Below are positions 39,615 to 62,720 of a stretch of DNA of 64,000 bases, in pieces. The DNA is taken from sequence record OR539220.1; one strand, given 5' to 3'. A program made the position numbers and the translations under genes. How positions within the stretch are numbered: position 1 is the first letter of the stretch; each line of letters starts with the position of its first letter. Below the pieces are notes generated by a model, which saw only the letters and a list, made by a program, of their open reading frames with translations, did not search any database and was not told the DNA's origin. The DNA is from Escherichia phage vB-Eco-KMB40.

Positions 39615-40085
39615 TTAATCATGTGTCCACACCCCATCGGTATTTGACCAAAGTCGCTGATTATCTGATCCTCGCCACAGCTTTTTAGTCGGAAGATTTT
39701 TCTCATACTTCCCATCAATAATAACATCAACATATTTAAGCATTTCTAGTTGTTTAATATCTTCAAACTTATATCCTGTCCACAACCAAATGCTTTTATT
39801 GGGATAAAGATTTTTAATAGTTTGAACCACAGAGTGAATCACGTCTCTGTTATCAGGATAAAGAGGGTCACCTCCGGTTATAGTCAATCCTTCTATATAA
39901 TCATTATTCAAACATTCAATTAATTGTTCTAGTGTTTCACCAGTGAATGGAACACCATTTCTAGCATTCCATGTTGATTTATTATAACACCCTTCACATT
40001 TATGCAAACACCCCGTAACGAAAAGAACGACCCTGCAACCAGGGCCATTCACAAAATCGCAAGGATAAAATCTATCATAATTCAT
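39615..40085 (-). CDS. nrdG: anaerobic RNR activase, radical SAM (156 aa)
   Basis: CxxxCxxC-type cluster CLHKCEGC; 156 aa as T4 NrdG. Confidence 0.85.
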   Translation of the reverse strand: MNYDRFYPCDFVNGPGCRVVLFVTGCLHKCEGCYNKSTWNARNGVPFTGETLEQLIECLNNDYIEGLTITGGDPLYPDNRDVIHSVVQTIKNLYPNKSIWLWTGYKFEDIKQLEMLKYVDVIIDGKYEKNLPTKKLWRGSDNQRLWSNTDGVWTHD

Positions 40086-41899
40086 TGGTGTTTAACCCTA
40101 TGCATGATTTCTTTATTTTTACCGAGATTAAATCCACGTTCGTTCGGATTTCCCAAATAACCACATGTTCTTCTTATTGTGTTCATCTTTTTAGGGTCAG
40201 TTTCTCCACAAATAGAACAAACAAATCCGTTTTCAGTAGGAGTCATTTCATGGGTACTTCCGCATGTAAAACATTTATCTACCGGCATATTAACACCAAA
40301 ATAATCTAAATGTTGTGCAGCATAATCCCAGACAGCCTCAAGACCCTTTAAATTGTTTTTCATATCTGGAAGTTCAACATAAGAAATGTGACCGCCTGTC
40401 GCAATGAAATGATAAGGCGCTTCACGAGAAATCTTTTCAAACGGAGTAATATTTTCTTCTACTGAAACGTGGAAACTGTTAGTGTACCAGCCTTTATCGG
40501 TAACATCTTTTACACTTCCATATTTTTCTGTATCAAGTTTACAGAAGCGATAACAAAGGTTTTCAGCAGGAGTCGAATATAAACTAAAAGCAAATCCGGT
40601 TCTTTCAGTCCACTGCTTAAGACGAGCATTCATTTTAGTTAAAATTTCTTGTCCAATATCACGACCGACAAGAATATTCAATTCATGAATACCAATGTAT
40701 CCTAAAGACACTGAACTTCTACCGCTTTTAAATAACTCAATTATATCATCATCAGGTTTAAGACGAACCCCGAATGCACCTTCTTGGTAAAGAATAGGAG
40801 CAACAGTCGCTTTAACTCCTTTTAAAGAACTAATTCTACACATCAAAGCTTCAAAACATAAATCCATTCGCTCATTGAACAATTCGATAAATTTCTGTTC
40901 ATTGAACTGTGTTCCAATATAAGAATCTAATGCGATACGAGGAAGATTCAGTGTTACAACACCGAGATTATTACGTCCATCAAGAATTTCATTACCAGTC
41001 GAATCTTTCCATACACCCAAGAAACTACGGCAACCCATTGGAGAAACAGGAATAGATGAACCTGTGATAGCTTTATTGTTCTTAGCCGAAATGATGTCAG
41101 GATACATTCTTTTGCTTGCACACTCTAGAGCAAGCTGCTTAATATCATAGTTCGGGTCGTCTTTATAAAGATTAACACCTTCTTCAACGAACATAACAAG
41201 CTTAGGGAAAATAGGAGTTATCCCATCACGACCAAGACCTTTAATACGATTTTTCAGAATTGCTTTCTGAATCATTCGTTCAGTCCAGTCAGTTCCCGTA
41301 CCAAATGTAATTGTTACAAAAGGAGTCTGTCCGTTTGAACTAAAGAGAGTATTTACTTCATATTCATAAGCTTGGAATGCATCGTATACATCTTTTTCTG
41401 TTTTAGATTGAGCATAATTCAACGCGTCAGTGATTTGCCATTTTTCTGCGTCCTCAATATGTTTTGCATAGGTGCGTTTAACATAAGGAGAAAGTACTTT
41501 ATCTACATTTGCAAAAGTCGTTCCGCCATATTGATGGGAAGCAACCTGTGCAGTAATTTGTGCCATAATTGCAGTAGCAACACCGATTGATTTAGGAGTT
41601 TCAATCTGTGCATTACCGAGCTTAAATCCGTTTTCAAGCATTCCTTTTAAATCTACTAAACAACAATTAGTAAATGGAAGAGCAGGGGAATAATCAATAT
41701 CGTGGAAATGGATAATTCCGCTTTCATGCGCTTTCATAATAAAAGACGGGACCATATTTTTGGCAATGTGTTTAGACACAATACCAGCCATAAGGTCCCG
41801 TTGAGTTGGAAAAACACGAGAATCTTTATTAGCATTCTCGTTTAAAAGGTCTTTATTAGTTTTATGAATCAATCCTTCAATTTCTTTTTCAATTGTCAT
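40082..41899 (-). CDS. nrdD: anaerobic ribonucleoside-triphosphate reductase, uninterrupted (605 aa)
   Basis: 605-aa continuous ORF, C-terminal Cys cluster; no intron interruption. Confidence 0.9.
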   Translation of the reverse strand: MTIEKEIEGLIHKTNKDLLNENANKDSRVFPTQRDLMAGIVSKHIAKNMVPSFIMKAHESGIIHFHDIDYSPALPFTNCCLVDLKGMLENGFKLGNAQIETPKSIGVATAIMAQITAQVASHQYGGTTFANVDKVLSPYVKRTYAKHIEDAEKWQITDALNYAQSKTEKDVYDAFQAYEYEVNTLFSSNGQTPFVTITFGTGTDWTERMIQKAILKNRIKGLGRDGITPIFPKLVMFVEEGVNLYKDDPNYDIKQLALECASKRMYPDIISAKNNKAITGSSIPVSPMGCRSFLGVWKDSTGNEILDGRNNLGVVTLNLPRIALDSYIGTQFNEQKFIELFNERMDLCFEALMCRISSLKGVKATVAPILYQEGAFGVRLKPDDDIIELFKSGRSSVSLGYIGIHELNILVGRDIGQEILTKMNARLKQWTERTGFAFSLYSTPAENLCYRFCKLDTEKYGSVKDVTDKGWYTNSFHVSVEENITPFEKISREAPYHFIATGGHISYVELPDMKNNLKGLEAVWDYAAQHLDYFGVNMPVDKCFTCGSTHEMTPTENGFVCSICGETDPKKMNTIRRTCGYLGNPNERGFNLGKNKEIMHRVKHQ

Positions 41900-58571: not shown

Positions 58572-59033
58572 TCATTGAGTTTTAATTACTGCTTTAGAAG
58601 CCTTTCCTGGTAAACGACGACTGTTGATAATTGCCATCCTACATTGAAGTGACGGGTCTTTGAACTTCTCATTAGGTTTACAAACTGTAAATCCAAGCCA
58701 AAGATTTCCATCTGTAATTTCTAAACGTCCAGGACGATATTCAACTCCATCAATAAAATCCTCATCAATGTCAGGACGCGGAGGCATACTCAGGAATTCA
58801 TTAACTTCTAAAACATGGTCTTTTATTTTATGGAATAATTCAAAAACATATGTCTCATCAATCTCCCGTTGAATTGCACGATCAAGAAGATGTTGAGAAT
58901 ATTTTAGATGAAACGATGAGACCCCTGCTGCTTTTGATGCCTCACGAATCTCATTGTTAATTTGACGAAACTCCGACTCAAAGTGACGACGAAGCTTATT
59001 TCGACGGATAAAAACTTCTGTATTGATAGTCAT
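58572..59033 (-). CDS. regB: RegB endoribonuclease (153 aa)
   Basis: 153 aa as T4 RegB; promoter and SD upstream. Confidence 0.8.
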   Translation of the reverse strand: MTINTEVFIRRNKLRRHFESEFRQINNEIREASKAAGVSSFHLKYSQHLLDRAIQREIDETYVFELFHKIKDHVLEVNEFLSMPPRPDIDEDFIDGVEYRPGRLEITDGNLWLGFTVCKPNEKFKDPSLQCRMAIINSRRLPGKASKAVIKTQ

Positions 59034-59059
59034 GTTATTCTCCTCTTAACTGATAGAAA

Positions 59060-59089
59060 AATTATACCACAGTCAAGAGGAAAAGTAAA
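59060..59089 (-). promoter_or_regulatory. early sigma70-type promoter for regB
   Basis: GTTTAC at 59084-59089, TATAAT at 59060-59065. Confidence 0.55.
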
Positions 59090-59092
59090 CAG

Positions 59093-59371
59093 TTATTCTT
59101 TAAATCTAATCAATTTATTCATAGACTTTGAAACTTCTGCACGAACCTCATGTAAGTTTTTAAGCTGTTCAAGACGCTGCGTATAGTAAGCAATTTCATC
59201 TTCTTCGAGACAGTCCTGTGAATCTTCTTTAAGATAACGTGCATAGTCCTGGAAAGCTTTACGGACTACTTCCTGGAAGTCATCAAGACTTTGAATTTTC
59301 TTAGGAGCGACAGATACACGACGAGGTGCAGTATAATACTCATAACCAAACCCTGCGCTTAATTGAGCCAT
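59093..59371 (-). CDS. vs.3-position protein (92 aa)
   Basis: ATG at 59371 overlaps upstream stop (TAATG); track ORF starts further upstream. Confidence 0.4.
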
Positions 59372-59637
59372 TAGTATTTTTCCTCTGGTTGGAACACTGC
59401 GCGACAAGCCCACATACTGGCTTCTTTGAGTTTCGTTTTAGCAATAGTTAACTGATCGAGGCTTTCGGCGTAATTCTTCGCGAGTTCATCATCTTCACAG
59501 CTATCAAATGCTTCCCAAAATTCATCGTATAAAGCATCAAAGATAAGTCCTAAACGAACTTCAGCGTCTTTAATAGCATTTACTTTACCGATTTTTTCGT
59601 CGGTATGTGGCTTATAACCTTTAATATCTTCAATCAT
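59371..59637 (-). CDS. acb2: vs.4-position protein, possible Acb2 cyclic-oligonucleotide sponge (88 aa)
   Basis: ATG at 59637 with SD GAGGAAG; second ORF upstream of regB; identification from recollection of T4 Vs.4. Confidence 0.4.
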
Positions 59638-59851
59638 ATTTGACTTCCTCACCAGTACATAAATCGTATTCAACTAAACGAATAGGTTCATGAATGCCAT
59701 ATCCCTGAACAGAAATTTCTGTAGTAGGATAAATTCCATTAATATCACCCATGTTCCATGCTTCGTTAAATTGCTGTTCGCCTGAATTACTAAACCATTC
59801 GGCGAAAGCATTTAGCACATCTTCAGAACCTTCAATAATTATCTTTGCCAT
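59630..59851 (-). CDS. hypothetical small protein (73 aa)
   Basis: ORF in vs cluster. Confidence 0.4.
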   Translation of the reverse strand: MAKIIIEGSEDVLNAFAEWFSNSGEQQFNEAWNMGDINGIYPTTEISVQGYGIHEPIRLVEYDLCTGEEVKYD

Positions 59852-60213
59852 TACAAACTCTCGGTAAAGGTACGAGCGATAACGTCGCGCTGCTGTTCCG
59901 GAGTCAGAGAGTTAAAGCGAACTGCATAACCGGATACACGGATGGTCAGCTGCGGATATTTTTCCGGATGCTTAACTGCATCTTCCAGAGTTTCACGACG
60001 CAGAACGTTAACGTTCAGGTGTTGACCACCTTCAATTTTAACTGTAGGTTGTGGCTCAATTTCAATTTCACGGGCATGCAAACCATAGAAAATTTCTGGG
60101 TCTACAAAAGAGTCCTCTTTAAAGGTTTTAGAGACAATAATTCGTGCTTGAATACCATCTTCAAAATAAATAGTACCTTTATGTGTGCCTTCAAGAATTT
60201 GATATGCTTTCAT
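59851..60213 (-). CDS. autonomous glycyl-radical cofactor, GrcA/YfiD-like (120 aa)
   Basis: glycyl radical signature RVSGYAVRF and GQHLNVNVL...[15 protein letters not shown]. Confidence 0.7.
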
Positions 60214-60220
60214 ATAAACC

Positions 60221-60547
60221 TCAATTAGAAAATAAATTTATCCAAGATTGTTCTTTAATTAAAAATGGCTCAGAATCATATGCCATTAAACTTTGGGTGA
60301 TTAGTCCTTTAAAAGGTCCATCAATAAATTCCATGGTAAAATATGGAATTTTATTCATTAACTGTGCGTTAGGAGCAGTGCACAAAACTCTGCATCCTTT
60401 GAATACGCCTTTTTGTAATTTGTATTGCTTGGGATAAAATTCGCTTAAAATGTTGTTATTTGCCAAAATTTCAAAATGATTTACCAATTTATTTTTAATA
60501 GTTTTTGGCGAAAAATAGAGATATTCGAAAAGCTGTGTGTCTGTCAT
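60221..60547 (-). CDS. hypothetical protein (108 aa)
   Basis: track ORF trimmed to ATG at 60547 (TAATG overlap with upstream stop). Confidence 0.4.
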
Positions 60548-61137
60548 TATTGCATTCCGATTACGAAAAACTGTGGACGAGTAATACCACCAATGCAACA
60601 TTTACTATTACAGCAGTAGTGTACAGTGTCAATATGGACGCTATAAATCTTATCCATATCAGGAGATTTGACAGGCTCATCAATTATATACAAAATTCGC
60701 GAAAGCGATAAACCTCTGAACTTGCTTCCTTTATTACCAATAAAACTGCGTACAGAATCAGTAAATAAACGAAAACGTATATCATCATTAGAATAACGCG
60801 AAAATTCCTTTTTAATGTTATTTGCAGAAATTTTAGCGTAAGCTGAAGTATTAGAAAGAACAATAACTGTTCCGCCATCATACAGCCAATTAGCAGCAAA
60901 GTTAGTCACAGCAATTGATTTACCGGATTGACGTCCACCATCTATACGAAGTGTGCAGTACTGTTTGAGCACATCTTCCATTGGTGGAAGATAATCATTC
61001 TTACAAAGTTCTTCTACTCTAGCATCAGAATGGTGTGTAAAAGCATTCATCAGGGATAGATAAGGTCCGGTTAAAAATGTTCTCATGTTATTTCTCTTAA
61101 GGTTTTTGGGCCATTCCGTGGCGCATGAATTGTCCAT
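60547..61137 (-). CDS. P-loop protein (196 aa; alternative ATG at 61086)
   Basis: Walker A-like DGGRQSGKS. Confidence 0.4.
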   Translation of the reverse strand: MDNSCATEWPKNLKRNNMRTFLTGPYLSLMNAFTHHSDARVEELCKNDYLPPMEDVLKQYCTLRIDGGRQSGKSIAVTNFAANWLYDGGTVIVLSNTSAYAKISANNIKKEFSRYSNDDIRFRLFTDSVRSFIGNKGSKFRGLSLSRILYIIDEPVKSPDMDKIYSVHIDTVHYCCNSKCCIGGITRPQFFVIGMQ

Positions 61138-61230
61138 TTCTGTATTTACCCATTACCGCACTCAGGCTCGACCTTATTACAGGTTGGCGGGAATCCCTCA
61201 TAGAATCATGAGGTCCAGGCTGTTCCCATA

Positions 61231-61704
61231 TTATTTGAACGATTTAACGTACTGAATAGAACCTTTACTATTTACAAAGGCAATTTTACCATTTTTATTA
61301 TACATGGTAGCAGTACGTTGATAACCATAAGTTTGTTTACCAGATTGATAACCAACTAATGCGAAATTATCTTCGCCCATTTTATTCTGTTTAGCGCGAA
61401 TGCGTTCATGACCATGTGCCATAAGAACCTTAGCATCACCGGTTGCAATGGATCGACGAGTTTTTTCATCTTCAACTGTATTAACAAAGTCGTCAAATGA
61501 ATCAAATTTAGCATGTGATTTATTATACAGTTTTCCATCTACTGCATAATTATATCCCTGTACATCCATCTCAACTTCTGTACCATCATCCAATACAGCA
61601 GTGATTTTTTGACCTTTTTTAAATTTCAAAAGATCAGTAAAAGATTCAGCAATAATTTGAGAATTAATAGCTGCTTCAGTGATAAATTCTTGATATGTTT
61701 TCAT
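61231..61704 (-). CDS. internal-protein-like protein with capsid targeting sequence (157 aa)
   Basis: N-terminus MKTYQEFITEA matches T4 IP targeting sequence MKTYQEFIAEA; adjacent to denV. Confidence 0.6.
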   Translation of the reverse strand: MKTYQEFITEAAINSQIIAESFTDLLKFKKGQKITAVLDDGTEVEMDVQGYNYAVDGKLYNKSHAKFDSFDDFVNTVEDEKTRRSIATGDAKVLMAHGHERIRAKQNKMGEDNFALVGYQSGKQTYGYQRTATMYNKNGKIAFVNSKGSIQYVKSFK

Positions 61705-61713
61705 ATGTTTCCT

Positions 61714-62130
61714 TTAAATGTAAATATTTTTACCGTAATACTTATACCAATGTGGTTTCATTAAAATTTTTTCATCAAGTCGTTGTTGACTCAATTTAAT
61801 AGCTGATTTGCATGGATTATAATCATTTTTCCATTCTACTGGAATATCGCTGATGTCAGGAACTTCAGTATCTTTTATACTGAACCCTCGTTTTAAGCAT
61901 TCCGTTATAATGTCTAATTGACGCTTTCGCAAAAATTCTAACTTATCGTAAAAGAACGTAACATGACCAGAACCTAAAATAAACTCGGAAGATATTTTAA
62001 AATCTTTAACGCGCTTACCGTTTGCCACATGCTTACGAACTATACCAAAAACACGTGGCAATTCACGATATTCTGCAATTAAATGCTGATCAGTAAGTTC
62101 AGATACTAAAGTCAAATTAATACGAGTCAT
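61714..62130 (-). CDS. denV: endonuclease V, pyrimidine-dimer DNA glycosylase (138 aa)
   Basis: [12 protein letters not shown]...[10 protein letters not shown]...WYKYYGK; 138 aa as T4 DenV, visibly diverged. Confidence 0.85.
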
Positions 62131-62155
62131 TTTATCCCTCCAAGTAACTGTGAAT

Positions 62156-62185
62156 ATACTATCACAATTCTAGGAGAAAGTAAAC
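62156..62185 (-). promoter_or_regulatory. early sigma70-type promoter for denV
   Basis: GTTTAC at 62180-62185, TAGTAT at 62156-62161, SD GGAGGG. Confidence 0.5.
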
Positions 62186-62189
62186 AACT

Positions 62190-62720
<531 letters not shown>

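Follow-up and report, generated by a model that had tools for sequence, protein, structure and literature searches.

The T-even gene vs.6 of Escherichia phage vB-Eco-KMB40: a known GrcA/YfiD-type radical domain with an apparently host-derived patch in its 3' half

Two spare-part proteins of ~14 kDa, bacterial YfiD and phage T4 Y06I, are described by Andorfer et al. (2021; PMC8683613), with reference to Wagner et al. (2001), as restoring pyruvate formate-lyase (PFL) that has been cleaved by oxygen. Following work from the Knappe group, that paper states that PFL-AE installs the radical on YfiD or Y06I, which form a complex with cleaved PFL, and it names the two as the sole validated spare-part proteins. 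The primary report for Y06I (Wagner et al., 2001, BBRC 285:456) is used here as rendered by that citing paper; the same work on YfiD/Y06I is cited in a 2026 review (PMC13450708). In YfiD, binding of cleaved PFL and efficient activation are both promoted by the disordered residues 1-60, and residues 61-127 duplicate the C-terminal fold of PFL (PMC8683613). At the genome level, Nolan et al. (2006; PMC1524935) saw the Gly_radical match of vs.6 in six of six T4-like genomes.

In a 64,000-nt stretch of DNA from phage vB-Eco-KMB40 (sequence record OR539220.1; in the following, the window), vs.6 occupies 59851-60213 on the minus strand according to the ORF listing, as an intact reading frame of 120 codons plus stop with an ATG start. 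A sequence-only reading had claimed a 120-aa product with the motif RVSGYAVRF for this interval, giving no strand; frame and motif are both present. By translation, the glycyl-radical signature RVSGYAVRF (residues 92-100) lies at 59914-59940 and the GGT codon of the radical-bearing Gly95 at 59929-59931, both on the minus strand, and alignments to E. coli GrcA (6OWR) and PFL (1CM5/1H16) equate Gly95 with GrcA Gly102 and PFL Gly734. A Shine-Dalgarno sequence GAGG (60219-60222, minus strand) is located 7 nt 5' of the ATG (AATTGAGGTTTAT-ATG) and shares bases with the TGA stop codon of vs.7, the gene upstream. At the other end, the stop of vs.6 and the start of vs.5 have one base in common in a TAATG junction (59849-59853, minus strand; GTTTGTAATGGCAA), as do the two genes in the T4T annotation. 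As read from the sequence, the TAATG overlap would provide translational coupling in an early gene cluster, and the tight packing of genes around vs.6 is typical of the T4-type early clusters. A scan for promoters and terminators over 59000-62300 returned 13 promoter matches at a shuffled expectation of 12.3, none of them above chance. An open reading frame of 127 aa on the plus strand (59845-60228) was dismissed as an antisense shadow of vs.6.

The DNA of vs.6 shows 100% identity to its T2 counterpart and 99.4% to that of T4, and the protein equals T4T Vs.6 (T4 Y06I, UniProt Y06I_BPT4) residue for residue, bearing out the YfiD homologue that T4 is reported to encode. The T2 gene, which encodes the identical protein, is labelled vs.6, "autonomous glycyl radical cofactor GrcA", in RefSeq. 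Gene and function are already known and publicly annotated, and the locus adds nothing as a gene finding. The surrounding genes follow the T-even order of T4T and T2 (regB, vs.3, vs.4, vs.5, vs.6, vs.7, vs.8, denV), and the matches to T2/T4 vs.6 together with this order place the window in a Tequatrovirus. The neighbourhood differs from that of T4T by an extra gene between vs.8 and denV (61231-61704, minus strand), which encodes a 157-aa DUF7412 protein (Pfam, 5.7e-96) and has no T4T counterpart; T2 contains a gene of the same length in its vs.8-denV region, whose annotated product is internal virion protein IpIV. T4-like gene content (denV, vs.8) and T2-like gene content thus occur side by side in the window, and the segment 56000-64000 of the window reaches no more than 98.1% identity with any deposited phage, even though vs.6 is 100% identical to T2. 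Judged by sequence, the source is a mosaic Tequatrovirus, neither T2 nor T4 proper. Two places downstream of vs.6, vs.4 (59371-59673, minus strand) matches the Pfam Acb2/Tad1 hairpin domain (1.4e-19); we take its product to be the T4 anti-CBASS cyclic-nucleotide sponge Acb2. The vs.4 ORF is listed with a TTG start, and the internal ATG of the T4 annotation is probably the true start.

For family assignment, Vs.6 was compared with Pfam, NCBIfam and PHROG profiles and with solved structures. Gly_radical (PF01228) is its sole Pfam domain (residues 61-101, E-value 2.8e-18, 66.8 bits at a cut-off of 22.2), carried by a stand-alone ORF bounded by vs.7 and vs.5. GrcA/YfiD (IPR011140, TIGR04365) is characterized by small size (~14 kDa) and a stand-alone build without fusion to the barrel of a glycyl radical enzyme, by the RVxGY signature and by a score above the PF01228 gathering cut-off, and Vs.6 has all of these properties. 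In NCBIfam, TIGR04365 (autonomous glycyl radical cofactor GrcA) ranks first (E-value 3.7e-45, alignment over residues 20-120), with a score of 153.3 bits that lies below the equivalog cut-off of 170 for the whole protein because the N-terminal half is divergent. PHROG 1209 matches at full length (E-value 1.2e-62, residues 1-120 of the 121-position profile), which, together with the conserved place in the regB-denV early cluster, identifies the protein as T4-type Vs.6. Among solved structures, E. coli GrcA (6OWR) is closest (E-value 8.6e-42), followed by residues 697-759 of E. coli PFL (5.2e-26), with the remaining glycyl radical enzymes at 4e-12 or worse; the domain is accordingly of PFL type, with the PflB C-terminus and GrcA as closer matches than any other glycyl radical enzyme. 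In the pairwise alignment with E. coli GrcA, the last 60 residues of Vs.6 (61-120) are 100% identical, so the structured half as a whole is identical to a solved structure. The Pfam, NCBIfam and 6OWR matches therefore agree on a GrcA-like C-terminus with a glycyl-radical signature, as the sequence-only reading had proposed, and the signature glycine region, whose lack of conservation would have spoken against that proposal, is fully identical to that of E. coli GrcA.

On this basis, we consider it very probable that vs.6 is a T2/T4-type gene for a 14-kDa radical domain of the GrcA/YfiD type that repairs O2-cleaved host PFL. The rescue of oxygen-damaged PFL put forward from the sequence finds support in the literature on the identical T4 protein, as PMC8683613 relates it. 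By analogy with what is reported for T4 Y06I in vitro, Vs.6 would take its glycyl radical from the PFL activase and restore the cleaved enzyme. In a microaerobic infected cell, oxygen would cut host PFL at its radical glycine, Gly734; Vs.6 would bind the cleaved PFL, with its GrcA-identical C-terminal half replacing the lost PFL C-terminus; the host PFL activase PflA, a radical SAM enzyme, would put a new radical on Gly95; and the restored PFL would again make acetyl-CoA and formate from pyruvate and CoA. The benefit to the phage may lie in an ongoing supply of fermentative ATP and acetyl-CoA during infection. In the literature searched, no phenotype in vivo was found for vs.6 mutants.

The half of the protein that departs from GrcA bears on a different role. 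Residues 1-59 (60036-60213, minus strand) are phage-specific in the alignment, homologous to the disordered half of GrcA and divergent from it, and as this half governs binding and activation of cleaved PFL in YfiD, the regulation or affinity of Vs.6 may differ. One might accordingly picture Vs.6 as a decoy or modulator that titrates PFL activase or occupies PFL, redirecting host pyruvate metabolism instead of repairing the enzyme: Vs.6 departs from the host protein in the very part responsible for binding and gated activation in YfiD, and the score of Vs.6 falls short of the GrcA equivalog cut-off. We regard such a role as very unlikely, since reconstitution of PFL activity by Y06I is reported (PMC8683613), the conserved positions of the N-terminal half are common to Vs.6 and bacterial GrcA, and the sequence gives no sign of a loss of the catalytic glycine loop. 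In the alignment, Q5, D34 and R48 are invariant across phage and bacterial GrcA-type proteins; the glycine loop and its flanking residues do not vary in any of the homologues examined.

Repair of host PFL may also be connected with anaerobic nucleotide metabolism. The window encodes NrdD, a formate-dependent glycyl radical enzyme that serves as anaerobic ribonucleotide reductase (40082-41899, minus strand; Pfam NRDD 8e-171, Gly_radical 1.2e-25), and NrdG, its radical-SAM activase (39615-40085, minus strand; Pfam Fer4_12 4.5e-49, Radical_SAM 9e-08). Of the connection drawn in the sequence-only reading between these genes and vs.6, the presence of both nrdD and nrdG stands; the tie itself is thematic only, because the genes are ~18 kb apart and not physically linked. 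In class III RNRs of this type, the overall reductant is formate (Mulliez 1995, as cited in PMC11226230). PFL-made formate might therefore serve as reductant for the phage NrdD/NrdG, which would give a functional reason for vs.6 to occur together with nrdD/nrdG.

In other phages, homologues are found within the nrd cluster. In Aeromonas phage PX29 (L095:1023-1878), a GrcA-like gene directly follows nrdG and overlaps its end; a homologue directly after nrdG is also found in phiWae14; and in the Yersinia jumbo phage fHe-Yen9-04 (L088:1-3345), a GrcA-like gene sits between nrdD and nrdG. Judging from the placement in PX29 and fHe-Yen9-04, PFL repair and anaerobic ribonucleotide reduction may be functionally tied in a conserved way, and the formate link would account for such a tie. 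The same placement in these three phages, and the speculation of Nolan et al. (2006; PMC1524935) on a role in nucleotide metabolism, could instead be taken to mean that Vs.6 is a spare glycyl-radical domain for O2-cleaved phage NrdD, activated by NrdG, and not for host PFL. Repair of NrdD is unlikely because Vs.6 and the NrdD of the window lack significant similarity (BLASTP E-value 2.6). The domain, moreover, is identical to that of GrcA and shows 84% similarity in type to the C-terminus of PFL, vs.6 lies 18 kb from nrdD in the window, the function reported in PMC8683613 is with PFL and PFL-AE, and adjacency to nrd genes is explained equally well by PFL feeding NrdD with formate. We thus give NrdD repair very little probability and retain host PFL as the substrate.

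What sets vs.6 apart as a gene is its composition from two halves. A stretch of 172 nt (59864-60035, minus strand; nt 179-350 of the gene) matches nt 200-371 of E. coli grcA exactly; the equivalent exact match in T4T is 178 nt long. This patch encodes phage residues of about 60-117, which is almost the whole structured glycyl-radical half; its counterpart in GrcA is residues 68-123, out of a structured region that spans 61-127. The 5' half of vs.6 is ~50% identical to E. coli grcA in the DNA alignment, and the last four codons differ from grcA again, synonymously, so the identical stretch is internal to vs.6. All 5426 complete E. coli genomes (5426 of 5426) match only the patch half, with 95-99% identity. 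The patch has a GC content of 0.49 and a GC3 of 0.43, the latter as in E. coli grcA (0.43), and the 5' half has a GC content of 0.34 and a GC3 of 0.19, neighbouring phage genes having a GC3 of 0.23-0.34. With a host-like composition in the patch and a phage-like composition in the 5' half, vs.6 has the appearance of a mosaic, in which the 3' half would have been overwritten recently by host grcA via homologous recombination. The patch would, we infer, be the only part of vs.6 with enough homology to recombine with host fragments during T-even infection. Selection on the protein cannot explain the identity of the patch, as Slopekvirus 05F keeps the protein, with two amino-acid changes in the patch, at 82.5% DNA identity; the amino-acid sequence of vs.6 is thus conserved where synonymous sites have diverged. 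In the literature that could be searched, which did not extend to Wagner (2001) and Miller (2003) as the primary papers on T4, no description of the vs.6/grcA mosaic was found.

The same position carries different patches in different phage lineages. In the E. coli T-even phages (Tequatrovirus, Mosigvirus), the patch is 97-100% identical to E. coli grcA; in the Klebsiella T4-like phages (Jiaodavirus), it is of K. pneumoniae type, with 95-98% identity. For phage Kpn6N, the 171-nt patch is 95.3% identical to K. pneumoniae grcA and 86.0% identical to E. coli grcA, the two bacterial genes being 87.7% identical to each other over this patch. Reciprocal searches bore this out on a larger scale: with K. 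pneumoniae grcA as query, 106 phage records matched at 95% identity or more, mostly Klebsiella phages (KPV15, 98.2%), and 526 at 80-90%, mostly E. coli phages; with E. coli grcA as query, 638 phage records matched at 95% or more, and 106, from Klebsiella phages, at 80-90%. In both searches, only nt ~200-384 of the query aligned. With Salmonella grcA as query, no phage matched at more than 90% identity, and a comparison with a sample of 80 bacterial grcA genes revealed no recent host patch in the homologues of T5-like phages, Slopekvirus, Karamvirus, Krischvirus, Aeromonas phages and the jumbo phage. The K. oxytoca phage PKO111 had its best match in K. pneumoniae grcA (89.6%) within a sampled set that held no K. 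oxytoca grcA. In Tequatroviruses whose isolation host was Yersinia, the patch is of E. coli type, which indicates that the patch follows the phage lineage and its main host, not the isolation strain. Among the bacterial records, grcA of K. aerogenes NCTC10006 (PLSDB 'plasmid 2', L100:200-590) shows an apparent frameshift immediately ahead of the glycine loop, probably through an assembly error, and several PLSDB 'plasmids' with grcA or pflB are megabase-sized chromosomal records (e.g. the 5.37-Mb CP125156.1).

The two halves of the phage genes also have discordant histories. Between T4 and Mosigvirus, the 5' halves are 88.3% and the patches 97.7% identical; between the Jiaodaviruses Kpn6N and PKO111, the 5' halves are 96.3% and the patches 90.6% identical. 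These discordant identities point to independent events. In bacterial grcA, both halves diverge equally between species (84-88%), which argues for vertical descent in bacteria and hence for transfer from host to phage. As far as sequence comparison can tell, the presence of Klebsiella-type and E. coli-type patches at one position points to repeated gene conversion from host to phage. We think it likely that phages have repeatedly re-copied the working half of this spare part from the host of the respective lineage, the 5' halves evolving independently. The E. coli and Klebsiella patches encode the same residues at all but two positions, so that conversion may be largely neutral and not adaptive.

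An exact match of 172 nt to E. coli grcA with host-like GC3 could, taken by itself, mean that vs.6 is host DNA picked up by chance recombination and carried as a functionless passenger, a notion to which we attach hardly any credence. Homologues were found by tblastn in 1588 of 50,697 phage records, spanning Straboviridae, T5-like Demerecviridae, Aeromonas phages and one jumbo phage, and in 1539 of these records, from several families, at least 80% of the protein is covered and the full-length ORF is kept, including the phage-specific 5' half. Lineages that have no recent host patch still retain the amino-acid sequence, and the full-length phage gene (at least 80% coverage) occurs in none of the 5426 E. 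coli genomes. Frequent frameshifts or stop codons in vs.6 of natural isolates were not seen in the sample examined.

T-even phages are usually studied under aerobic conditions, and they would carry an anaerobic kit suited to the gut, in which NrdD/NrdG consume formate and a PFL repair part sustains the production of formate and ATP. The patch would then be a small, clean natural record of a virulent phage recombining with a chromosome that is being degraded, independently in at least two host genera. If this is true, vs.6 represents a natural, recurrent case of host-to-lytic-phage gene conversion within a functional gene, which may be neutral or may serve to match the host's PFL and activase. 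The patch could be used to date the host associations of T4-like lineages, and to test if a glycyl-radical domain that matches the host matters for repair. Next to a function that is already known, the recurrence of a patch derived from the host adds a modest, well-supported footnote on evolution.

Compared with the described systems, the protein is the same as T4 Vs.6/Y06I and occupies the same genomic position, with no substantive difference within the gene. E. coli GrcA (6OWR) is likewise a stand-alone protein of ~14 kDa whose C-terminal 60 residues, including RVSGYAV and the radical glycine, are identical; it differs in its length of 127 aa, Vs.6 being 7 residues shorter at 120 aa, and in its N-terminal half, which is ~30% identical to that of Vs.6 and contains an NSFWLLD segment that Vs.6 lacks, although homology to GrcA extends weakly but really into this half. 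Unlike GrcA, Vs.6 is encoded by a phage, and its 5' half has the AT-rich codon usage of phage genes. With the C-terminal domain of PflB (1H16, 2PFL; residues 697-759), Vs.6 shares domain and motif end-to-end over its residues 58-120; PFL has in addition the catalytic barrel with Cys418/Cys419, and as Vs.6 has neither, it can act only by docking into damaged PFL. The homologues in T5-like phages (Demerecviridae), Aeromonas T4-like phages and fHe-Yen9-04 have the same architecture and the invariant glycine loop at 44-65% amino-acid identity to Vs.6, but their genes are 70-77% identical in DNA to any sampled bacterial grcA and thus carry no recent host patch. Their neighbourhoods differ as well, with a tRNA cluster in the T5-like phages and the nrdD-nrdG cluster in the Aeromonas and jumbo phages: in the T5-like Escherichia phage HildyBeyeler (L091:1-1869), a GrcA-like gene of 122 aa, ~53% identical and without a host-like DNA patch, lies directly 3' of a run of tRNA genes.
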